From NCBI GenBank assembly GCA_964569985.1, contig CAZMWL010000022.1:2328-66327 (forward strand): 64,000 nucleotides of DNA, read 5' to 3'. Of this stretch, positions 17,086-28,897 are shown piece after piece. Origin of the DNA: an uncultured Terracidiphilus sp. Its GTDB lineage: Bacteria; Acidobacteriota; Terriglobia; Terriglobales; Acidobacteriaceae. The position numbers were made by a program, and so were the translations under genes. Numbering within the stretch: the first letter of the stretch is position 1; each line of letters begins with the position of its first letter. Under the pieces are notes generated by a model, which saw only the letters and a list, made by a program, of their open reading frames with translations, ran no database searches and was not told the origin of the DNA.

Positions 17086-17316
17086 CTACTTGGCCGCCGC
17101 GATCGCCTTGTCGCTCTTTGCGTACTTCCGCCGGAACCGCTCCACGCGTCCCGCCGTATCCACCAACCGCTGTTTGCCCGTAAAGAACGGGTGGCAAGCC
17201 GAGCAAATTTCCACGTGAATGTCGCCCTTGTGGGTCGACCGTGTCTCAAAGTTGTTTCCGCAGGCGCACATCACGCGCACCGCGGCGTAATTGGGATGAA
17301 TCTTTTCCTTCGGCAT
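17086..17316 (-). CDS. rpmE: 50S ribosomal protein L31 (Zn-binding type)
   Basis: [34 protein letters not shown]. Confidence 0.98.
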
Positions 17317-17408: not shown

Positions 17409-17521
17409 CAGCTAATAGCTCCTAGCTGCCAGCTCCTTGCCGTTCCTGCCGTGCGAACTGCTTGATACACAACAAGATCCAACCCAGTATGGAGGAGCTA
17501 GCAGCTAGAGGCTAGAAGCTG
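17409..17521. repeat. Inverted heptamer arrays (TAGCT../..AGCTA)
   Basis: CAGCTAA TAGCTCC TAGCTGC CAGCTCC ... GGAGCTA GCAGCTA GAGGCTA GAAGCTG. Confidence 0.7.
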
Positions 17522-19080
17522 GGGCTGCGTTTCTTCCCGGCCAGCTCCGCCCGCGCCGCCAGCCCGATCGCCATGGCCATCACGCGGTCGTCGTGCGTTC
17601 CCGCCTGCGCCCCCGAGCTCCCATTCGGTTGCCGCACAAAGCTGCGGCACTCGCCCAGCAGCCGCCGGCTCTGGAAACACTCCGGCTCTTCCACCAGCGC
17701 CGCATCCAGCCGCGAGATCGCCCCTGGCCGGCTCACGCTGGTCGTCAGCCAACCTGCCTGCCCGCCCTGCCGGTAAATCCGTTCGTACTTGCACGCTGTC
17801 TCCGCCAGCGCCAGCACGCCGCTGCCGTGGTTGTTTCGCTCCACCACCAGCCACGCCCCGTTGTACTCGGCGGCCAGCCCGGTCACAAACCGCGCCAGCT
17901 CCAGTCCGCCCACGTGCCCGGCAAACTCCGCGCACTGCAAGCCCGTCTCCATCTCCAGCACCTGCGCAGCGGAGTAGTCGCCGTTGCTCCCGCCTCCCGC
18001 CGGATCCACCGCCACCACATATTCTTTTTCTCTCACCGGCGGCAGCCATATCTCGAGCTCTCCGTTCCTCCGCCGCTCCACCGGTTCCGGCGCCGTCTTC
18101 AGCCGCGCTTCAACCGCTGCCAGCTCAAATACGCTCTCGCCGCTCGCCAAAAAGCAGCTCTCTTCGTCTTCTGCATACTCCTGCGCCGTCAGCCCGCGAA
18201 AATCCGCCCGGATCCGCCGCCGGTACGCAATCTGCGAGAGATTCAGCCCGGCCCGCTTCATCAGCACGCGCTCTTCGTCCGTCAGGCTCGCCTCATCCGC
18301 TGCTTCCGACTGGTAGCGCTGCTCCATCCACCATGGGAAAAAGTGTCGCACCGCCCCCGTTTCATCGGCCTTGCGCCATTCCTCGTAGAAGCACCCGCCC
18401 ACGCCCTGCGGCGTCGACTCCAGAATCAGCTCTCCACCCGGCGCCATGGCCGCGCGCAAACCCGCCAGAATATCCGCCGCATCGCCAGGCCACCGCGCCA
18501 ACTCGCTGCAATGCAGGTTCTGCACCGTCAATCCCCGCCCCGCGTTCCGGTCCGCCGCGCTCACCACGCGGTATTCCGCGTCGATTTTCGGAAACACAAT
18601 CTGCCGCACGTTCGCCCGTCCCGTTTTAAGCGGACCCTCGCGCAGACCATCCGGCAGCCAATCCAGAAACCGGTGCACGATGCGGAAAATCTCCTCCGCC
18701 GCCTCCTGCGTGTGCGCCACTTCCAGCGTCAACGTACCTGGCTGCGTAATTGTCTTCAGAAAGAACCGCGCCGCCACCCACGTCGTCAACCCCATCTGCC
18801 GCGCCTTTAGCACAATGTTCCGTTGTCCGCGCTTGTTCTCGAAGGCCTCTTGCACCTTATTCGCTCTCAACTTGCCCGGTCGCCCCTCGCGCGTCCTCAC
18901 CACCAGCAATCGTTCCGCCAGCGCCAGGATCACGGTAAGCCCTTGCATGCCCGCGGGGCGATGGTCCAGAACCTTCCCCAGGAACTCCAGGTCGCTCCGA
19001 TCCGTCTCCTCGTTCCGCAATGCTTCCAGGCGCAGTCCCCACGCATCAATCTTCGGCTCGCAATCTCCTCTCGCTTCCAC
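17512..19080 (-). CDS. Phage terminase large subunit-like protein
   Basis: Walker A LKARQMGLTT, Walker B variant NLHCSE, motif III ESTPQG, RNase H-like nuclease VAVDPAGG...ERNNHG...HDDRVMA. Confidence 0.88.
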   Translation of the reverse strand: MEARGDCEPKIDAWGLRLEALRNEETDRSDLEFLGKVLDHRPAGMQGLTVILALAERLLVVRTREGRPGKLRANKVQEAFENKRGQRNIVLKARQMGLTTWVAARFFLKTITQPGTLTLEVAHTQEAAEEIFRIVHRFLDWLPDGLREGPLKTGRANVRQIVFPKIDAEYRVVSAADRNAGRGLTVQNLHCSELARWPGDAADILAGLRAAMAPGGELILESTPQGVGGCFYEEWRKADETGAVRHFFPWWMEQRYQSEAADEASLTDEERVLMKRAGLNLSQIAYRRRIRADFRGLTAQEYAEDEESCFLASGESVFELAAVEARLKTAPEPVERRRNGELEIWLPPVREKEYVVAVDPAGGGSNGDYSAAQVLEMETGLQCAEFAGHVGGLELARFVTGLAAEYNGAWLVVERNNHGSGVLALAETACKYERIYRQGGQAGWLTTSVSRPGAISRLDAALVEEPECFQSRRLLGECRSFVRQPNGSSGAQAGTHDDRVMAMAIGLAARAELAGKKRSPSF

Positions 19081-19133
19081 GAAACCCCCGCACTCACTCC
19101 GCCAACCGCGCTAGCCCCGCTAACTCCGCACGC

Positions 19134-19172
19134 TGCCCCATCCTTTTCGCGCTTTTTGCGGAAAGGATGGGA
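19134..19172 (+). repeat. REP-like palindrome, copy 1
   Basis: TGCCCCATCCTTTTCGC-GCTTTTT-GCGGAAAGGATGGGA. Confidence 0.85.
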
Positions 19173-19188
19173 CGCGACAATCAGGTCC

Positions 19189-20922
19189 CTAGTTCCCGCC
19201 GCACCAATACCTCACCGTGTACGCTGTTGAAGCCGTCAGCGCCGTATTCGCCGTGATCGTAATCGCGGTCGTGCTCTCCGCCCACGTGGTGGTCGTGAGC
19301 ACCGCGGTTGCGCTCTCTGTCGTTACCATGCAGTTGGCGTAGTTCGAATGTGTGTTGGGGAACGAGATCGTTGCCAGTGTCCCGGTCGTCGGGCTCGTTC
19401 CTGTCGTCAGCGTCACTGTGCCGCTCACGCCGTCGCACGCGTGGTTGGTCGCGCAGGCAATTGCCGGGCTCGTTCCCGCTGCCGCACCAGCCGTAAAGGT
19501 CATCGTGCCGCTGCCCATGAAAAACTTGCCCGACACAAATCCCGTCGCCGTCGTGTTGCCGCTTCCCGTCACGGTCAACACCGTCGCCGGGGACGACGCC
19601 CCGTTTTGTAACACCAGCCCTGAGGTGCCGCTGTTCGCCGCGCAGTTCAGGCACACCTCGTAGGCGCCGTTGCCGGCGTTGATGTTGGTATTTCCGCCGC
19701 CCTGGTAGATCGTTAAACGGTCGAGACTGCTGTGGGCGGCGTCTTGAATGTGGTACGTGTAACTCGTATCGACCGTGTTATCCCACTCCGCCGTCCCGCT
19801 GTAGTTCTGCCACTGCAGCTCCTCGGTCTGCGCCGCGCTGGTTCCCGCCTGGATCTCCACAATATTCGTCGCCGCCGACGCGTTATTGAAGAGATTCGCG
19901 CTGCCCTTCAGGGTCGATGACGCGGTAGTGGTTACGCTCGTCGCGCTGGCCACGCCCAAAGTCGGCGTGGTCAGTGCAGGGCTGGTCGCCAGCACCACGC
20001 TGCCGCTGCCCGTGGTTGCGCATGCCACAATCTGGCTGCTCGAATTCGTGCAATTCGCTGAAGACGAAACCGGCACGCTCGCCCCGTCCACCTGCGTTGC
20101 GTTGGCATTGCCTAATTGGCCCTCTAACTGCCAGTAAGTCCCGTCGTAAGTCGCGCTGATCCAATGCCCCGCCAGCACGTCGTTCGCCGCCAGCGTACTG
20201 CTTTTTCCCCATTTCATCAGCGTTGCCGCCGCCGCTCCGTTCACTGCCAGCGTCGCCGATCCCGTGTTCGCCGCATTGAAATTGATCGAGATTGTGTCGC
20301 CCGCCGCCGGCGTAAAACTTGGCGAAGTCGTGCATGTGTAAGCGTTCCCGCTGTTCGTCGTCACGCACGTGCGCGGCGCGGATTCGTTGTGCGCCGTTGC
20401 TGCCGCGGGCTGGCTACTCGCGTTGGTCGCAATCAGGTTCGCCGAAGTGGGCACCGCGCCGCCGTTAATCTTGCTCACAGTCGTCGCGCTCTGCGTCCCC
20501 GTCACGTCCCCGCTCAAGCTGCCCGTGAAGCTCGTCGCACTGGCCGCACTGGTCGCATTTGGCACCGCCGTCGACCCGATCGCGCTCACAATCTGCGCTC
20601 CCGTCGCAGCAGTCGGCGCCGACCCCGTCGAAAAATAGCCCAGGCCCGTGAAGGCCGCCGAGCAGCTCACCGCCGTCCCGCTTCCGGCGTAGTACGCCAC
20701 CGCATAAGCCGCAGCACAGTTGCTCACCGTGCCCGATCCGCTAGGCGTTTGAAATACAAAACTGTCCGTGCCGCTGTTGTAGTAAAGGTAGCCCGTGGCC
20801 AGTGTCGGAACCGGCACTCCGCCGATCCCGTTGGCGCTTGGCGCCGGCAATCCCGTCGACGCCTGGCCCCACGCGACTACTGGCGCTGCCGCTAAAATCC
20901 AAACCCACAACCAACGCTTCAT
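19189..20922 (-). CDS. Secreted tail-fibre-like protein (577 aa)
   Basis: MKRWLWVWILAAAPVVAWGQ signal peptide after GGAG; Thr/Ala/Ser/Gly-rich; NAYTCT...INFNAANTGSATLAVNG and LSGDVTG motifs resemble phage fibre proteins. Confidence 0.6.
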   Translation of the reverse strand: MKRWLWVWILAAAPVVAWGQASTGLPAPSANGIGGVPVPTLATGYLYYNSGTDSFVFQTPSGSGTVSNCAAAYAVAYYAGSGTAVSCSAAFTGLGYFSTGSAPTAATGAQIVSAIGSTAVPNATSAASATSFTGSLSGDVTGTQSATTVSKINGGAVPTSANLIATNASSQPAAATAHNESAPRTCVTTNSGNAYTCTTSPSFTPAAGDTISINFNAANTGSATLAVNGAAAATLMKWGKSSTLAANDVLAGHWISATYDGTYWQLEGQLGNANATQVDGASVPVSSSANCTNSSSQIVACATTGSGSVVLATSPALTTPTLGVASATSVTTTASSTLKGSANLFNNASAATNIVEIQAGTSAAQTEELQWQNYSGTAEWDNTVDTSYTYHIQDAAHSSLDRLTIYQGGGNTNINAGNGAYEVCLNCAANSGTSGLVLQNGASSPATVLTVTGSGNTTATGFVSGKFFMGSGTMTFTAGAAAGTSPAIACATNHACDGVSGTVTLTTGTSPTTGTLATISFPNTHSNYANCMVTTESATAVLTTTTWAESTTAITITANTALTASTAYTVRYWCGGN

Positions 20923-21021
20923 CTTTCTTCTCCTCGCTCCCTGTCCACACGACAGCGCGCGGCCGGCGACATGCGCGCCCTGCTGCGTTCCCGCTCCGGC
21001 CATCGTTCTGTTGTTCTCTGG

Positions 21022-21076
21022 ATCCCTCGGTCCTCGGCCCCTCGGTCCTTTAGCCCCGAAGTCCCGTAGCCCCTGC
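21022..21076. repeat. Degenerate octamer array (G.CCC..)
   Basis: GCCCCTCG GTCCTTTA GCCCCGAA GTCCCGTA GCCCCTGC; similar arrays near 28219-28240 and 31722-31746. Confidence 0.6.
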
Positions 21077-21079
21077 TTT

Positions 21080-24000
21080 TTATTGCGGCACGTTGGTCGA
21101 TCCGGCATCTCCATGCCAGTCGCCCAGTCCGGCGATATACGTTCCCGTCTGCTCGGAACAGGTGCTTGCTGTCGTGCCCACAGTCACGCCGCCCTTCCAG
21201 TGCGCAGGCCACGTCCACGTGTACGGTCCGCCGCTTGCTGGCTGACAAATGAAGATCGTCACCTTCCCGCCGCCGGCGCCCGAGCCGATCGACGCCGTCA
21301 CATTGCCGCTCAGCACGTAAGTCGCCTCCGCGCGGTCCGTCGCAGGCAGTGTGATCGATCCGCTCGCCGACGAGTTGTATGTCTCATTCGGAGCATTCAG
21401 CGCCACGCCATTCACCTGATAGCCGTTAGTGGACGTGCTTTCGCACGTCGCCACCGATCCCGCAGGCATTCCCGGAGGTACACATCCGTGGTACTGATCC
21501 CGCCGTGCCTCTTCAATCTGATCCGGAGTCAAATTGCAGGTCCCCGCCGCTGTACACGCGGGATTGTTTGGGCCGGGAATGAATGCCCAGAATGGCTCTG
21601 CCCACTGGTTGCCGACGCCCGCAACATTGCCTCCAAGTCCGAGATAGAAAATGGCCCCACCGCCGCTATCAATACTGCCCTTCAGAATCGTAGCGATGGC
21701 TACTTGGGGCGACCAGCCGTTATTCTGTAATCCCGTACCGAAAGCCTGCGGCCAGCTACCTTCAGTCGAGCACGGTCCAGAGCCGCAGTATGTGGTAGCG
21801 AATATCTCACCGTCTCCGCCAGCTAAGTGAAAACTATTGTTCTGTCCTGAGTTAGTATCGCCCGTAGTCTGCGGCTGATTTACGGGTCTGACCCACGCTC
21901 CGTAAATGTAGTGATCCCCCGCGTAGGTCTGGCGAGTATCTTGAGCGAGGAGGAATCTCGGATTAAAAGTAGAACTGGTGTTGCCAACAGCCTGTATCGA
22001 AGGCATCTGGCCGCCTGGCCCATCGGGACCGGGCACGGCCGTAGCCGTACAACCGCCTCCGCACGACGACTCCATCGCAGCCACCGTAAATCCTGTAACC
22101 GGAAGTGAACCAAACGGGAGAATCTGTGGTCCGAAGCCAGAACCTATGTTCTGGTACTCGCCCACGCTCTGATTGCCTTGGTTGTAGGTGCCGCTGGGAC
22201 CCGTCTCGTTCAATGGAATAGCGAAAGTGGCGCCCTCCGTCAGATTGTCGATAACTTGTCCGTTGAAATAGGCATTCGTAAATCCGTTGCCATAGAGAAC
22301 GTTGTTGTCGCTCTGCACGCAGCCGGTAGGGTCGATGTTCCCATCTGTGTAGCCCAGCAAATTCTGCGGCCATTCGGAAATGTTGTCTTGCAGAAACTGA
22401 TCTTTGAGGGAAAGGCAGTTTGGTGCCTGGATGCCGAAGCGATTGTCTACGGTGACAGCGTTCCCCCAGGACTCTTCGTAGGTAGAGCTCGTGATGCGTG
22501 GCATTCCCACAATAGCGCGAACGCCGCTGCCATCAATTTTGATACCACCACCCAGAAATGCGCTGCCCTGATCAATATCCGATTGGGCGCATCCAGACCC
22601 GTTAGAGGAGTAGTAGCTGCCCACAGGCGCATCGGAATCGCAGCGCAGAGAGTAGGGATAGGCAGGCTGCGAGCATCCGCCGCTCGGACAGGCAGACAGC
22701 TCCGGGACGGAAACAGTTATATCGTGGAACTGATTGAGGTAACACGCGGAGCACTCCATTGCACCCGAAGCTATGAACGGAGATGCCTGCGCACCTACGT
22801 GGTCCAACACAAGATTTGTGCTGCCTTCGGCCCAGAAAGCCATGCCGTAGGAATATTGGAAATTGAGGTCCTTCCACGTCTGGGGACCGTAGGTGTTGAA
22901 TGCAGGACCAGCCGCCACTTCACCCCATTCGTCGCTGGAAGAATGCGTGTGGCTGGTCATGATTGTGACCTGGTTCGCGCCGCACGCGTTGTAAGTCACA
23001 CCGTTGAATGTTCCCGCTGTACCGTTCGAGCACAGAATGCGTGCCGACTCATACGCATCTTCGTTGAACCCCGTCACCGTGCATCCAGTCGCCGTTGAGG
23101 GCGTGGTGTCGGCCTGGAAAATCGTAAGGGTCTGCGCCGTGTAGTCTGAATGATTCACCACTTGGTTTGTTGTGTTAAACGAAGCATCAGAGCAGCCAGA
23201 AACGGTCACGAGTTCACCCGGCGGGATGCGGGTGTAGCCAGCGAGTGTATAGGTCGTCTGCCCATTAGAGGTGCGGGTAGCCGTAGCCGTAGAGGTCGCC
23301 AAGCCAGTAGCCGTGATAGCCGACCCTACTGGCAGGTTTGCAACGCCGCATGGCGAACCGTTGACCGTCCCGCTAAAGTTTGGGGTGATGGTGGTTGCTG
23401 TGTTCGCGGTGAGGATCGCAGTGCCGAGAGTCCCGTAACATCCCGGACCAGAAATATATGCCGGAACGGTCCCCGTCTGGAACTGGTTGGGTCCGGGTCC
23501 ACCGTCCCCAAACCAATCTTCAAAACCCAATCCTACGAGAGTCGAACCTAAGTTGAGAGCACCTTGCAGCTTGAATATTACAGTGCCTGCCGAAGGGCCG
23601 GTGAGGATAGAGGAGTTTTGCAGGAAGCATCCCACGCCTCCGTTGCAGGGAAGAAACACAGTCCCCGTGCTTCCTGGAGTTGAATCCACGTTGTTGATGC
23701 ACGCCTGCACCGCGCTGTCGATGGGCGTGTGCCCGTCGATGATCGCGCCATATGCGCGAATGTCGCACACCGGTGAGAGGGCAGGAATCGACGCTGCCGC
23801 CTTCACGTTGCCCGTCACGATGATTCCGTTGTTCCCATCCGACGCCACGCCCGGCAGCAGGTTGGCAATGGCTCCGCTGGCGCTTGTCGCTCCCGTTCCG
23901 CCCGACGCCAATGGAACTGCATTCATGCCGCCGATCGTCGTGCCACTGGCGGTGTAATACGCAATCTGTCCCGAGTTTCCCGAATTAATGGTGCCGCTCG

Positions 24001-27000
24001 TTCCTCCCGATCCCGATCCGGATCCAGATCCAGATCCGCATGCCGCTCCCGTGTTGGTGAGATATCCAGATGTATCCACCTGCAGGCAGAAGTGCCCTGA
24101 AGACGCGGCCAGCCCCGGGAACTTGATACTCGTCGGACCCTGAAACGCCGCGACTAAGTTAGCGCTCGATCCCGAGTAGATGTCCGTCTCCGAGCCGGAT
24201 CCGCTTTCGTAATTCAGCCGGATATGTCCCGTCGCATTACTCGTATCAATATAGGTATCGCCGCTGTTCGAACTCTGGTACGCCTTCAAACTGTCCAGCC
24301 CGCCCAATGCCGAAATCAGCGCCCAGTTGTTGTACTGATCCTTCACCATGTACCACTGGCTGCTTCCGTTCCAGTCCTTATAGGTGTACGAACCCTTCTG
24401 GCTCGTCGTCAGTCCCGGCCACAGGTAGTAGTCCACCTCCGCGTCGGCGTTGTTACGCACCGTCATGGTCCCCGCCGATTGCGACGTCCCGCCCACCTGC
24501 AGGGTTCCCATGAATTGCGCGTTTCCGGCGTTGTCCACAGTCGCCACCGTCGTTGGCGTTGCCCCGCCGCTTGAGAAGCTCACGCCACCCGTTCCGGCAT
24601 TGCTCGAACAGTTGAAGCACACGTTTCCCGTGCCCGCCGCATTCAACGACGTCTGGTTGTTGGTGCTGCTCTGCCCGTGATTCCACTGCTCGATCTGCAG
24701 CCGGTACACGTTGTTCAGCAGGTCCTGCACCTGGTAAAGCTGCTGCCCGCTCGTGCCGTCGCTGAAGCCGTAGATCCAGCGGTATCCGTAATCCGTCTGA
24801 ATCTCGTTCAGTAGTCCGCGCTCATTCCCCGCGCCGATTCCCAGCCGGAAATGATTGGTCAGCGTCGCGTCCTGCTGGCTTCCATACCAGTCACCATTCA
24901 ATGCGTTGAAACTCCGGTGAAATGTATCGAGGAAGCTGTTGCGCGTGCCGTTGTCGGTTAGCTTTCCCGTGAACATCGTCCCGCCGGTCATCCAGTCGTT
25001 GTACTGGCTGCCCGCGTCCGCCACGATTTGGTTCGCCGAGTTCTCGTTGCGCAGTCCCACGATCGTGTTGTTCTGCGCATTCGCTCCCAGATGCAATGCT
25101 GTCGCGCATCCCTCCACATCTCCGCCCGTAAACGTGTTGCCGTCGCCCTGTTGCAGGTTGATCCCATACGTCCCGCTCATCGGACTTCCGCTCGCCGTCG
25201 GGCAATCGATGTGCAGCCGCACAAATGTGCTCGCATTCATCCAGTCCGTCGTCGCCGGATTCGCCACCTGATGCCCGATCGCATTCACTGCGGTCCCAAA
25301 CCCGCCAAACTCATCGTCCAAAAATGTGCCGCCCGTGTAATTTCCGGTTCCATCCAGCGTCATGCCCGTCTGATTTTGATTGCCCAGGAAGTACAAGCTT
25401 TCGAGATCCAACTCCTGCGTCCGGTAAGCCACCAGCCCCTGCGCCGTTGCGCTTGTCGCTGCGGTGGTATTGATGGCCACGTTATCCATGTGGAAGCCCG
25501 GCGTATCCACGGCATACGTCGGATCGCCCACTTGGACCATCGCGCTCGTGCCCGAGTAGGCAAACACCGTCCCGCCCTGGCTTCCGCTCGCCTGCGTTCC
25601 GCCGCGCAGTGCGCATCCCCGTAGCGACACGTTCCGCGTCCCCGCCGTCACCACAATCTGGTTCGCCGTCGCAATCGTTGCGCAGGGCAGCAGCACCGCG
25701 GTGTTCGATGTGGCAATCGTCAGGCTCGATGCCATCGACAAATTCCCCGCAAAATTCCGCGCGTCGCACGTGCCGCCATAACTCGCATTCAACGCGTTCA
25801 CGCACGCCTGGATTTTCGCGCCGATGTCCGCGCCCGGAAACTGATCCACCTGGAGCGCCGCTCCCACGTTGCTGTTCCCCACCAACGCGGCATAAGTGCC
25901 GCCGCCCGGCAGCGTGCCGCCTCCACCATCCACCTGCGTCCCGTAGCTCGCGGAACTTCCCGCGTTCCAAACCGTGTATCCGCCGTTGCCCTTCAGCAGA
26001 TTTCCGGCAAAGAACGTCATATCCTGCCCGCCAATCAGGTTCACCGCCGCTGCCGTATCCCATGTTCCCGGCTCGTTGACGCTCGCCGTCGTAGTCGACG
26101 AGCAGCCGACTCCGCCCTGCGTCACCGTCACGCCGGCAATCGATCCGTTCGCATTCACCGCCGCCGTGGCCTGCGCCGTGCAACTCCCGCTGAACGCCAC
26201 CGGCACGCTGGTCCCATACGGATCCCATCCCAGTCCGTGTTCGCTGCCCACCGTCACCGCAGTCACCGCGCCGCCTGCCGCCGTCACCGCCAATGCCGGC
26301 TGCACAGCGTTCCACGTGGGCATCACCACCGCGTTCCGCACTGTCCATCCCTGCGCGGTTCCGCTCAGGTCCAGCACCAGCCCCGTCGGCGGCTCGCCCG
26401 TGGCCGCGGAATTGCCCGCCATCGCCACCACGTTATCCAGCACGTTGTTCGATCCCGTTGCCGCCGTGAACGCGTGCGTCGCCTGTATCGTCACGTTCTG
26501 CCAGCGATTCGAATCGGCATTCAATCCCGCCGGCGCTGTCACCGGAAGCGCCGGAATCACCACGCCCGTGTTCACACCGCGAATGTCGATGTTCCGGAAA
26601 TCGCTCCACTGCGGCCACTGCGCCAGGTACAGTCCGCACGTGTGTGTCGAATGCGCTCCCGGATATTGCGCCGCCATCGGATCCACGCCCGTAGTCGCAA
26701 TTTCCACGTTCTCCACTTCCGCCACGCGCAGCCCATTTCCTCCCGCGCCCGTCGTCGCCTGCATGGCAATTGCGCAATTGCCCACCCACCACGCAGCGCC
26801 CGTGCCCGCCGTTCCCGTCAAGCCATTGCCGCCCGTCGAAAAAATCGAATTCTCCTCGATCGCCCGGCTTAGTTGGCAAGCGCCTGCCGCCGCGCGCCCC
26901 TCCGCAGGCGAGCACGATTCATCTACGCTCTGGTCTACATAAATCGTCAGGTCGTGCAGCCGCGTATAACTCAAGATGTTCAGCGCGTCAGGCCCGCTCA

Positions 27001-28150
27001 CCAGCACGTCTTCGCCCGGAAATCCCATCAACGCCGAAACCTGTTTCCCCAATCCTCCAATCGACTCCCCGCGCCAGCTCAGCGTCCGCGTCTTGCACGT
27101 GCCTTCGGGAAGCAGCAGCGCCACGCTGTGCACGTGGGCATAACTCAGCGCCGCCTGCAGAGCGCTCGTATCATCCGTCACGCCGTCGCACACCGCGCCG
27201 AACTCCTTCACGCTGCGCTCCGTCTGCTGCGATCCGCTCGTCCGCCAATCCACCACCTTCACGCCGTTCGCATTCGCGAACGTGTCCGTTCCCGCGTAAT
27301 TCGGCGGAATCTCCATTGCCCCAGTCGTTCCTGCCGCGTTCATTGCCGCCTGCAGTGTCGACTGTCCGCTCGCCGCCGTGGGCGCCTCCACGCCGTTTAC
27401 CGCCGGCGTCGTCAGTGCGCCCGTCATGTTTCCGCCCGCCAGTGGAACCGCCGTCGCCACCTGCGTGTCCACGTAGTGCTTGGTCGAGGCCTGCATCGGT
27501 TGCGTCGGGTCCGCGTTCAGATAGAGCGGTCCGCTCAGCGTTCCGCCCGACGCCGTCAGCAGGCTCTCCGTCAACTCCGTGATCGCCTGGTCCACGTACG
27601 CCTTGCTCACCGCCTGCACCGCCTGCGTCGCCGGCATAATCTGCACCTGCACCTGCGCCAGCGTCGCATTTGCCGCCGCCGGAACCACCCAGTACTGCGT
27701 GTTCACCGTCCCGTCGCTCATGTAGTAAACGGCCGTGTAGTACTCTCCCGCGGGCGTCGCTCCCTGGTTCGGCGCGAGGTTCACGCTTACAAATCCGTCC
27801 GGCGCAATCGTCACCGTCATCGAGTCCGCGGCAACGGCCTGGCCCGCCGCGGTCGTAAACCCCGGCCAGCTGATCACCAGAGTCCCTGCGCCTGGCTCAC
27901 CCGTTGCCAGATACACCGTCCCCTGTACGGTCGTCGTCGTCACACCCTGCGCCCACGCCGTCGCCGCCAGCCCCATCGCCAGCATTCCTGCGGCAATACG
28001 CATCCCCATCCGCACCAGCGATCCGTGCCCCATCCTTTTCGCGCCTTTTGCGAAAAGGGTGGGAGCGCAGCTAACTAGCTCGCTTGCGGACTTATTGACT
28101 CGCCGGCTCGGCGTCCGCAACCCTTCGTTCTTCATGAGCTTCATTCCCAT
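21080..28150 (-). CDS. Giant tailspike/beta-helix-like protein with signal peptide (up to 2356 aa; start uncertain)
   Basis: MRIAAGMLAMGLAATAWAQ; fibre repeat GGTLSGPL...ASTKHYVD; pectate-lyase-3-type caps SVKEFGAVCDGVTDDT, DQFPGADIGAKIQAC and DIRAYGAIIDG. Confidence 0.7.
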   Translation of the reverse strand: MGMKLMKNEGLRTPSRRVNKSASELVSCAPTLFAKGAKRMGHGSLVRMGMRIAAGMLAMGLAATAWAQGVTTTTVQGTVYLATGEPGAGTLVISWPGFTTAAGQAVAADSMTVTIAPDGFVSVNLAPNQGATPAGEYYTAVYYMSDGTVNTQYWVVPAAANATLAQVQVQIMPATQAVQAVSKAYVDQAITELTESLLTASGGTLSGPLYLNADPTQPMQASTKHYVDTQVATAVPLAGGNMTGALTTPAVNGVEAPTAASGQSTLQAAMNAAGTTGAMEIPPNYAGTDTFANANGVKVVDWRTSGSQQTERSVKEFGAVCDGVTDDTSALQAALSYAHVHSVALLLPEGTCKTRTLSWRGESIGGLGKQVSALMGFPGEDVLVSGPDALNILSYTRLHDLTIYVDQSVDESCSPAEGRAAAGACQLSRAIEENSIFSTGGNGLTGTAGTGAAWWVGNCAIAMQATTGAGGNGLRVAEVENVEIATTGVDPMAAQYPGAHSTHTCGLYLAQWPQWSDFRNIDIRGVNTGVVIPALPVTAPAGLNADSNRWQNVTIQATHAFTAATGSNNVLDNVVAMAGNSAATGEPPTGLVLDLSGTAQGWTVRNAVVMPTWNAVQPALAVTAAGGAVTAVTVGSEHGLGWDPYGTSVPVAFSGSCTAQATAAVNANGSIAGVTVTQGGVGCSSTTTASVNEPGTWDTAAAVNLIGGQDMTFFAGNLLKGNGGYTVWNAGSSASYGTQVDGGGGTLPGGGTYAALVGNSNVGAALQVDQFPGADIGAKIQACVNALNASYGGTCDARNFAGNLSMASSLTIATSNTAVLLPCATIATANQIVVTAGTRNVSLRGCALRGGTQASGSQGGTVFAYSGTSAMVQVGDPTYAVDTPGFHMDNVAINTTAATSATAQGLVAYRTQELDLESLYFLGNQNQTGMTLDGTGNYTGGTFLDDEFGGFGTAVNAIGHQVANPATTDWMNASTFVRLHIDCPTASGSPMSGTYGINLQQGDGNTFTGGDVEGCATALHLGANAQNNTIVGLRNENSANQIVADAGSQYNDWMTGGTMFTGKLTDNGTRNSFLDTFHRSFNALNGDWYGSQQDATLTNHFRLGIGAGNERGLLNEIQTDYGYRWIYGFSDGTSGQQLYQVQDLLNNVYRLQIEQWNHGQSSTNNQTSLNAAGTGNVCFNCSSNAGTGGVSFSSGGATPTTVATVDNAGNAQFMGTLQVGGTSQSAGTMTVRNNADAEVDYYLWPGLTTSQKGSYTYKDWNGSSQWYMVKDQYNNWALISALGGLDSLKAYQSSNSGDTYIDTSNATGHIRLNYESGSGSETDIYSGSSANLVAAFQGPTSIKFPGLAASSGHFCLQVDTSGYLTNTGAACGSGSGSGSGSGGTSGTINSGNSGQIAYYTASGTTIGGMNAVPLASGGTGATSASGAIANLLPGVASDGNNGIIVTGNVKAAASIPALSPVCDIRAYGAIIDGHTPIDSAVQACINNVDSTPGSTGTVFLPCNGGVGCFLQNSSILTGPSAGTVIFKLQGALNLGSTLVGLGFEDWFGDGGPGPNQFQTGTVPAYISGPGCYGTLGTAILTANTATTITPNFSGTVNGSPCGVANLPVGSAITATGLATSTATATRTSNGQTTYTLAGYTRIPPGELVTVSGCSDASFNTTNQVVNHSDYTAQTLTIFQADTTPSTATGCTVTGFNEDAYESARILCSNGTAGTFNGVTYNACGANQVTIMTSHTHSSSDEWGEVAAGPAFNTYGPQTWKDLNFQYSYGMAFWAEGSTNLVLDHVGAQASPFIASGAMECSACYLNQFHDITVSVPELSACPSGGCSQPAYPYSLRCDSDAPVGSYYSSNGSGCAQSDIDQGSAFLGGGIKIDGSGVRAIVGMPRITSSTYEESWGNAVTVDNRFGIQAPNCLSLKDQFLQDNISEWPQNLLGYTDGNIDPTGCVQSDNNVLYGNGFTNAYFNGQVIDNLTEGATFAIPLNETGPSGTYNQGNQSVGEYQNIGSGFGPQILPFGSLPVTGFTVAAMESSCGGGCTATAVPGPDGPGGQMPSIQAVGNTSSTFNPRFLLAQDTRQTYAGDHYIYGAWVRPVNQPQTTGDTNSGQNNSFHLAGGDGEIFATTYCGSGPCSTEGSWPQAFGTGLQNNGWSPQVAIATILKGSIDSGGGAIFYLGLGGNVAGVGNQWAEPFWAFIPGPNNPACTAAGTCNLTPDQIEEARRDQYHGCVPPGMPAGSVATCESTSTNGYQVNGVALNAPNETYNSSASGSITLPATDRAEATYVLSGNVTASIGSGAGGGKVTIFICQPASGGPYTWTWPAHWKGGVTVGTTASTCSEQTGTYIAGLGDWHGDAGSTNVPQ
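28026..28064 (+). repeat. REP-like palindrome, copy 2
   Basis: TGCCCCATCCTTTTCGC-GCCTTTT-GCGAAAAGGGTGGGA, at the 5' end of the giant ORF. Confidence 0.85.
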
Positions 28151-28305
28151 CGCGTCCTTCTTCCTGCCGCATCTCCCCGCACCGCGCGAGGCTTACAAAC
28201 CATCAATCTCCAGCCCTGGCCCTTAAGTCCCTAAGTCCATCCTCCAACACCCGATAAACCGGATAACTGCGATAACTAAGAGAACTGGTGAACTCGCTAA
28301 CTTCG

Positions 28306-28728
28306 CTAACTCGCCTTCTGGTCTCTGCCGTCTTCCATGCTTTCGTCCCACTCCGGCTCCGACGCCAGCAGCTCCGCCCAGTTCGGCCCACTCCGCTTCT
28401 TTTTCTTCTTCGTGTCCTTGTCCTGCTTCTTCTTCTCAATCAGCGACAGCATCATCTCCGTCCCGTGCATGTCGCCTTCTTGCGCTTTGGTCACCAGCTT
28501 CTTGGCAATCGCTTCGCTCTTCGCCTTCACCACCGCTTTCACCGCGTGACGCAGCTTTTTCCGTGCTCCCTTGTAGTCCTCAAGATCCACGGGAACACTC
28601 TCCCCATTCTTCTTACCGTTCGTCTTCTCTGGCTTCGCCGCGTTGCCGGACCCCGCCGCCCTTTTCGTCGTCGCGCCCTTCTTCTCTTGCTCCGTAGTGC
28701 ATTTCTGGTCCACGATGCTGTTGCTCAT
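28306..28728 (-). CDS. Small basic protein, possible terminase small subunit
   Basis: GAGGTG RBS before the ATG; Lys-rich; helical EAIAKKLVTKAQEGD segment; first gene of the terminase-containing run. Confidence 0.55.
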   Translation of the reverse strand: MSNSIVDQKCTTEQEKKGATTKRAAGSGNAAKPEKTNGKKNGESVPVDLEDYKGARKKLRHAVKAVVKAKSEAIAKKLVTKAQEGDMHGTEMMLSLIEKKKQDKDTKKKKKRSGPNWAELLASEPEWDESMEDGRDQKAS

Positions 28729-28777: not shown

Positions 28778-28813
28778 AAAAGTAAAAGGGGCAACTCGCT
28801 TTGAGTTGCCCCT
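28778..28813 (-). terminator. Intrinsic terminator upstream of the phage-like module
   Basis: Minus strand: AGGGGCAACTC-AAAGC-GAGTTGCCCCT then TTTACTTTT. Confidence 0.7.
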
Positions 28814-28858: not shown

Positions 28859-28897
28859 TGCCCCATCCTTTTCGCGTTCTTTGCGAAAAGGATGGGA
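28859..28897 (+). repeat. REP-like palindrome, copy 3
   Basis: TGCCCCATCCTTTTCGC-GTTCTTT-GCGAAAAGGATGGGA. Confidence 0.85.

Follow-up and report, generated by a model that had tools for sequence, protein, structure and literature searches.

The window analysed here is a stretch of 64,000 nucleotides from the genome of an uncultured Terracidiphilus (genome G000, 4.79 Mb in 149 contigs; window G000:C22:2328-66327), and it contains a four-gene module of phage ancestry that encodes the large subunit of a terminase (TerL), two fibre-like proteins and a small basic protein. As an earlier note on this DNA had described, the four open reading frames (ORFs) all lie on the minus strand, free of stops, and are flanked by rpmE (17086-17316) and a gene for an S9 peptidase (PF00326). 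What is a packaging terminase doing between host genes? The note took the module for an orphan, and indeed no portal, capsid or integrase gene is found among the called genes of the window. Genome-wide the module is no orphan, as the rest of the machine lies on other contigs of G000. On the sequence evidence, the window genes are the packaging-and-fibre part of a vertically inherited, integrase-free, phage-derived head-tail cluster that was split by rearrangement. The features of the module are as follows (REP, repetitive extragenic palindromic).

17512..19080, minus strand: terminase large subunit TerL, 522 aa (phrog_2, E 1.1e-26; ATPase and nuclease motifs intact; single copy in G000)
19189..20922, minus strand: second fibre-like protein, 577 aa, 12 Cys (ORF, with the Met of the second block as start)
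21080..28009, minus strand (ORF open from 28150): giant tail-fibre/tailspike-like protein, probably 2309 aa, 46 Cys (PHROG, PF12708)
27950..28009, minus strand: predicted Sec-type signal peptide of the giant protein (basic, hydrophobic, A-x-A pattern; from hydropathy and by eye)
28029..28063, no strand assigned: host REP-type hairpin (a pattern with 70 matches in the genome)
28306..28728, minus strand: 140-aa basic protein, candidate small terminase (positional homologues; weak family matches)
28778..28812, minus strand: intrinsic-terminator-like hairpin with T tract in the module leader (-21 kcal/mol, about 58 nt before the start codon)

The motif residues of the terminase are invariant in 37-38 of 38 orthologues, and its matches among cultured phages are all at 32% or less. 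The giant gene had been read as coding for a 2356-aa beta-helix protein. An ORF of that length is present, but the real start is probably at 28009, because the first 47 codons of the longer frame cross the REP hairpin. The protein consists of a conserved N-terminal domain, fibre 'knuckle' repeats and the start of a pectate-lyase-like beta-helix. PHROG tail-fibre families are matched by 19 of 30 aligned giant-fibre N-termini, and the beta-helix has a single Pfam match behind it (PF12708, E 1.4e-7, about aa 312-351), a Pfam search with the whole protein giving none. A profile of the fibre N-terminus retrieved from the PDB only weak matches to hyaluronidase repeats, and there sequence searches with both fibres, and with the capsid and tube described below, gave nothing significant. 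The 577-aa protein has a signal-peptide-like N-terminus (about 20866-20922) and no match in Pfam, PHROG or PDB; we call it a fibre because of its position and its local similarity to the giant protein. Its homologue directly precedes TerL in intact clusters of relatives (e.g. L125, L126, L264, L291). At 14 other loci the 140-aa protein has positional homologues; a core of two helices is conserved among them and the N-terminus is not, and the weak matches of the protein are to DUF5681 and an unnamed PHROG. A second copy of this gene (48% over 58 aa) is located at G000:C20:27379-27870 beside a small helix-turn-helix (HTH) gene, among host genes.

The module had been described as host-like in composition and as sharing its repeats with the rest of the window. 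Its G+C content at third codon positions (GC3, 0.72-0.80) and codon scores are like those of dusB and the S9 peptidase gene (0.77-0.81), except in the C-terminal part of the giant gene, where GC3 drops to 0.64. The REP repeats are confirmed, with further hairpins at about 19137-19171 and 28862-28896 bringing to three those in the module or at its edge; the octamer words were spot-checked only. The leader terminator has a counterpart in 11 of 14 intact clusters, yet the other strand scores too in 9 of the 14. Could the position of the module be an artefact of assembly? Contigs from four sequencing runs cover all 30 bins and bridge the fibre and TerL genes, and among the pieces listed none spans TerL and rpmE. 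Misassembly of this last junction is ruled out by an independent assembly, G323, which has the same junction.

Gene content and distribution of the cluster

The particle genes of G000 are found in three separated pieces: the window contig, a pair of contigs with the head and tail genes (C37/C17) and a contig with regulators (C69). The second piece was found by the genome-wide search for portal, capsid and tail loci that the earlier note had proposed. Its portal gene (PF04860) is divided between the ends of C37 and C17, which share an exact overlap of 55 nt, and it is surrounded by genes for a HipA-like kinase, a DUF3037 protein, protease-like and scaffold-like proteins, a 329-aa capsid, an adaptor (phrog_442, E 6e-17), two neck-sized genes, a 324-aa tube-like protein, a 770-aa protein and a 77-aa gene, followed by purE/purK. 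The capsid groups almost with certainty with HK97-type major capsid clusters (SU10_MCP), although its single-sequence fold was uninformative (predicted local distance difference test, pLDDT, 31); the tube assignment scores well and is a lead only. The model of the 770-aa protein (pLDDT 87.8) has a baseplate hub fold with a lectin-like insert and matches the hubs of Mu gp44, T5 pb3-type and injection systems. Protease, scaffold, closure, terminator and holin are names given from position and size, with no family matches. C69 carries a Cro/CI-type HTH repressor gene and, divergent from it, a sigma70-region-4 (sigma70_r4) gene, here called the activator, with host genes around. Searched with profiles for hub, tube, capsid and fibre, G000 yields one locus for each. 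Just before the activator, many loci have a small Zn-finger gene (CxxC...CxxC; the L094:5484-5700 region, G000:C69, L247-L250), which persists also where the structural genes are lost. A small gene and a Fic/Doc pair are inserted in G000 between the last gene of the cluster and purE (L053:9031-9833). The same genome contains a contig (G000:C55, 20.9 kb, GC 0.58) of an ordinary phage that is unrelated and has a terminase of its own; the last ORF of this contig begins signal-peptide-like and has no match to the fibre profile.

How are these genes arranged in relatives? Maps of 60 kb from 10 genomes give the order repressor, activator, small gene, fibre(s), TerL, HipA, DUF3037, portal through to hub, and small genes. 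The cluster occupies a fixed locus, with common flanks: a 70-76-aa gene upstream (seven genomes) and, downstream, purE (five) and a dihydrolipoamide acyltransferase-like gene (nine). In 20 loci of our choosing (16 high-scoring, plus four from closed, lower-scoring genomes) no more than a few kb separate TerL from the portal in 19, and 18 have the HipA-DUF3037 pair in between. Of the best 80 capsid loci, 37 are linked to TerL, 24 are split and 19 are too short; identity is mostly 85% or above among the split loci, and head-tail genes are kept in all the linked and split loci. Because relatives are contiguous, and G186 of the same genus is intact, the window holds the left half of a broken cluster. 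The earlier note had looked to conserved TerL-rpmE-dusB synteny, and this failed: the arrangement is kept in none of 29 other loci and was found again only in G323, G062 having a different junction. Judged from these maps, the ancestral state is one contiguous cluster and the split is therefore a derived rearrangement in one Terracidiphilus-like subclade, so that the dispersed system proposed before describes G000 correctly, but not the original state. The order is reshuffled in one genus (L084, L134, L138, L335: protease to tube, fibre, TerL, HipA, DUF3037, portal, hub). In one major clade, a dual-specificity phosphatase gene (PF00782; L048:891-1343 and homologues) precedes the fibre, and its product may be a counterpart of the HipA kinase.

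Across 201 Acidobacteriaceae genomes (the only tallies in which the unpublished G002 and G025 are counted), TerL is matched in 128 and the capsid in 126, both in 118 and neither in 65; the discordant genomes are mostly fragmented assemblies. A capsid profile matched 130 of 177 genomes of the family and none of 23 in the sister family, and in a sample of the phylum the capsid was found in 22 of 25 family genomes, with one marginal match (E 8e-4) among 275 others. At least 553 GTDB species genomes carry it. Its closest named relatives, among the matches listed, are in Terracidiphilus and other Acidobacteriaceae genomes, and a comparison of the capsid with cultured phages gave no match. The cultured Telmatobacter bradus DSM 23630 has a cluster that runs uninterrupted by stops from TerL up to the holin-like gene. 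TerL and capsid are nearly always single-copy; G178 (C7, C12) is the lone genome seen with two copies of both, its second capsid being in pieces.

Genomes without the particle genes often keep traces of them. Of five that lack TerL or capsid, four retain the activator, and hub sequence persists there in three. In G070 and G016 the ends of the cluster are joined at the same site and the regulators adjoin the 3' third of the hub gene, while G429, having lost TerL and capsid, retains portal and hub. Near-total deletion in G070 (L252, G070:C1:724836-725700) has left one ORF in which the fibre signal peptide is fused to the last third of the hub. The same hub stub lies at the same place in G016 (L253), and the two genomes are not sisters on the host tree. 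At L133:729-5453, scaffold and capsid genes of the cluster (77%) directly precede the packaging genes of another phage, by insertion or capture.

Inheritance, selection and mobility

Trees were built for 38 genomes; G044 was left out for its split rpoB, and nine cluster-less genomes are not included. TerL has 19 of 35 splits in common with rpoB/rpoC and no conflict at support of at least 0.95, where two halves of rpoB share 15 of 35 and shuffled labels at most 2 for TerL and at most 3 overall. A TerL tree held to the strong host splits is not rejected by the approximately unbiased (AU) test (p-AU 0.75). The terminase tree and the host tree, a comparison put forward in the earlier note, are thus largely congruent. 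Ratios of nonsynonymous to synonymous substitution (dN/dS, by NG86) are 0.10-0.22 for TerL (seven pairs, one more being saturated), 0.02-0.17 for the capsid and 0.02-0.25 for head and neck genes, next to 0.02-0.10 for rpoB; the structural-gene values were measured at dS 0.4-1.9. The giant fibre gives 0.16 against G062 (1111 codons), and HipA-DUF3037 is under purifying selection along with the head-tail genes. Variants in three of the module ORFs are synonymous in 16 of 25 cases, weak evidence as the list is partial and mixed. With genes intact in relatives, a host-like tree, purifying selection and head and tail genes elsewhere in the genome, the view of a long-resident, maintained module, not a decaying prophage, is borne out.

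Is an old defective prophage, kept by toxin-antitoxin addiction or defence cargo while its structural genes slowly decay, still conceivable? A toxin-antitoxin pair does sit in the middle of the cluster, and some genomes show patchy losses, in-place deletions and broken copies. Against slow decay stand the low structural-gene ratios at these distances, the retention of head-tail genes in every linked and split locus, and an intact TerL even where it is unlinked from the pair (G000, G062, G323). Congruent trees and dN/dS largely refute such a relic on the available sequences, and we regard it as very improbable.

An active temperate phage family that integrates repeatedly at one site is harder still to credit. 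Of 22 IMG/VR capsid matches, 17 hold the same cassette, and acidobacterial prophage clusters appear as likely active in the survey passages of PMC5900883. But the IMG/VR cassette contigs are fragments of 6.5-22 kb, the free phages with a related capsid that exist in IMG/VR are only 43-52% identical in it, the tree is host-like, the genes of G000 lie in three unlinked pieces, and neither integrase nor replication genes accompany them. No tyrosine integrase (PF00589) occurs within 350 kb of the cluster in four of four single-contig genomes (serine recombinases were not searched genome-wide), and a scan of 39 flanking and accessory proteins found no integrase, replication or lysin family. The pattern of presence, deletion and trees is, as far as these comparisons go, that of an ancestral, dispensable host trait and not of a mobile phage. 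We hold it as almost certain that the cluster is a maintained host trait, and its description as a domesticated, family-wide phage-particle system is well supported.

Possible design and role of the particle

What would such a cluster build? DNA-filled particles are strongly implied, because the motor residues are invariant and the head set is complete. The tail is peculiar. In all of 71 loci, 6-319 nt separate the tube from the start of the hub, and the tape-measure family PF10145 was not found in five of five genomes. In three free phages with a homologous tube, the position after it is taken by genes of chaperone size and by an ORF longer than 850 aa, rich in helix-forming residues and tape-measure-like in composition. 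As free phages with the same tube have a large ORF there, presumably the tape measure, its loss from the cluster appears to be derived; these ORFs have no PHROG tape-measure label, and one of them had no match in five genomes, in a search without positive control. The fibres are also unusual: in 35 of 36 homologues a basic-hydrophobic-AxA start leads directly into the conserved domain (assessed from hydropathy and by eye), the number of Cys is even in 35 of 36, and the length after the signal ranges from 603 to 3046 aa. A search of IMG/VR with the fibre N-terminus gave, among the matches listed, nearly exclusively the generic knuckle repeat. Finally, the operon has internal terminator-like hairpins. 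On the sense strand they precede the portal in 55 of 92 loci, against 3 on the antisense strand and 0 in shuffled sequence, and follow the protease in 50 of 110, against 7 and 1.

These features can be assembled into a working scheme. A Cro/CI-type repressor would hold off the divergent pair of Zn-finger and sigma-region-4-like genes, and the conserved internal terminators would silence the cluster until, in a few cells, the activator reads through. Portal, protease, scaffold and HK97-type capsid would form the head, and the 140-aa protein and TerL would load it with DNA without choice of sequence. This DNA would be chromosomal, since genes for excision and replication are missing from the element. 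Adaptor, closure, terminator, tube and hub would make a tail that, with no tape-measure gene present, may be a stub. The fibres would be exported by the Sec route, fold with disulfides outside the cytoplasm and join the particle once the envelope opens, giving lineage-specific recognition of polysaccharides. HipA-DUF3037 may guard the locus or help to kill the producer cell. Delivered DNA would enter the recipient via its own uptake machinery; the ComEC family is present in five of five genomes, but in 10 of 14 controls as well.

That the packaged DNA is random host DNA and is transferred, we infer from the absence of genes for excision and replication, from a small-terminase candidate without a conserved N-terminal domain and from analogy with known gene transfer agents (GTAs). 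We lean, with reserve, towards a host-owned GTA-like particle of independent origin, known so far from its genes.

Might the particles carry DNA for another reason? They could deliver polysaccharide-cutting tailspikes, or kill or block close competitors, with DNA needed for head maturation alone. The very large, fast-changing fibres, their pectate-lyase-like start, the lectin-like insert of the hub and the missing tape measure would all fit. The known tailocins have lost head and terminase, whereas all motor residues are invariant here, and no sheath gene was seen in the cluster. We find this role rather improbable.

A stronger rival is suggested by the genes between TerL and portal. The HipA-DUF3037 pair matches PADLOC PDC-M66A/B, and such a pair is presented as a kinase-dependent anti-phage toxin-antitoxin system in the pertinent parts of PMC13092281 and PMC12548924. 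The cluster might then be a domesticated, infection-induced anti-phage machine: host capsid and terminase would mis-package or divert phage DNA and parts, HipA would abort the cell, and particles with fibres would serve as decoys or receptor blockers. In addition, two unrelated phage types in IMG/VR (L141:1495-2385; L143/L144/L340:10001-10966; contigs of 74-214 kb) carry a lone copy of the capsid, 63-67% identical, among nucleotide-metabolism genes, with the protease too in L141. These copies nest inside the host capsid tree and have a deletion or replacement around residues 70-92, as expected of a captured dominant-negative decoy; possibly they are decoys against the host particle. Yet only two phage types are involved, on metagenomic contigs, and a phage might equally profit from blocking a GTA that competes for its DNA. 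The structural genes are conserved even where the cluster is missing the pair (G056, G062 and 8 of the 24 split loci), and a full set of neck, tube, hub and variable fibres exceeds the needs of head-size interference. We consider the anti-phage machine unlikely, though the best placed of the alternatives.

Several observations nevertheless weigh against a vertically inherited GTA-like particle. No particle, packaged DNA or transfer is on record, and the altered phage-borne capsids suit a defence role at least equally well. The candidate small terminase has no significant family match, and the second fibre has a dN/dS of 0.52 against G323. A siphovirus-type tail without tape measure has no obvious means to form the DNA channel. 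Nor was any conserved endolysin found; a single phage-type lysozyme gene in G000 (C88:3189-3773, PF00959, E 1e-37) lies among host genes and was not found in three of four other cluster-bearing genomes. The trees are not free of tension either: head genes share 18 splits with the host and have two strong conflicts, their concatenate marginally rejects the strong host splits (p 0.04), and for TerL the fully resolved host topology is rejected (p-AU 0.002, 2000 replicates). The capsid gene is missing from about one third of the family, the host tree pointing to several independent losses, and some genomes have it in pieces.

Returning to the GTA-like particle, a bolder version can be put forward tentatively, which we consider less likely than not: a new host-owned particle with a DNA-packaging head, a stub tail without tape measure, giant secreted, disulfide-folded fibres that attach outside the cytoplasm, a HipA-DUF3037 switch, and a capsid that unrelated phages have captured and crippled as a counter-measure. 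If true, one of the most abundant soil families would possess an independently evolved organelle for gene transfer or defence.

Comparison with known systems

With GTAs as a class the cluster shares chromosomal phage-derived head and tail genes, absence of its own integrase, excision and replication genes, vertical inheritance and purifying selection. To the family of RcGTA, the GTA of Rhodobacter capsulatus, no sequence link was found: its capsid is in the PDB, where our capsid profile had no match at E up to 1, and the nearest capsid relatives are uncultured phages, not the RcGTA clade. RcGTA has a tape-measure protein, as described in PMC7947584, a text in which the string 'Acidobacteri' does not occur; the Acidobacteriaceae cluster has none, its tube abutting the hub throughout. 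It differs from RcGTA and from CcGTA (the Caulobacter GTA) also in the signal-peptide-like starts of its fibres and in the HipA-DUF3037 pair between TerL and portal. The 140-aa candidate may resemble the RcGTA small terminase gp1, which is reported to be without a conserved N-terminal domain (PMC6854486). Production may be under host regulators, the cluster having a conserved repressor/activator pair and operon-internal terminators, and the terminators recall the antitermination control outlined for the Caulobacter GTA (PMC11150451).

The same adjacent genes for a HipA-like kinase and DUF3037 define the HipAD, DS-6 and PDC-M66 systems; here the pair is fixed inside a head-tail operon and co-selected with it, and its defence role is a predicted one. 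The free tailed phages L344, L347 and L357 of IMG/VR have homologous protease, capsid (46-52%), adaptor and tube, and L347 and L357 the portal too. Their protease and scaffold are fused into one protein of 480-580 aa, where the host cluster has two short genes, and their tube gene is followed by the ORF of over 850 aa, in place of which the host cluster has the hub. Tailocins and extracellular contractile injection systems (eCIS) have domesticated phage parts and the hub fold in common with the cluster, which keeps head, portal and terminase and shows no sheath gene. Active prophages differ by their integrase and replication modules and contiguous genes, and phage satellites (phage-inducible chromosomal islands, PICI, and their capsid-forming kind, cf-PICI) by their own integrase, primase and mobility between sites.

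Parts of this element have probably been seen before. A survey by Eichorst et al. 2018 (PMC5900883) counted one or more portal genes in 14 of 15 subdivision-1 genomes, two of them without detected prophage, and described a 'prophage cluster 153' common to Terriglobus, Terracidiphilus, Koribacter and strain KBS 89. From genera and counts, this is probably the same element. They interpret it as prophages that are likely active, and the relevant passages do not take up vertical inheritance, selection or domestication. A shared phage-like peat contig has been linked to an Acidobacteriaceae genome, with cryptic phage and GTAs mentioned in general terms in the corresponding part of PMC12142844. Our literature searches, with most subscription journals outside their coverage, found no description of the cluster as a GTA or domesticated system, and several of its features were likewise not found there, which would make them new. 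Many 'prophages' of Acidobacteria and 'viral contigs' of IMG/VR, the latter including the cassette-bearing capsid matches, would be host chromosome. Acidobacteriaceae are abundant in acid soils and peat; if the GTA-like reading is true, a phage would have been domesticated there independently and at family scale, providing a path for genes to move through soils and a test of why bacteria retain such particles, with a design that differs from the studied GTAs in its missing tape measure, predicted secreted fibres and built-in defence pair.

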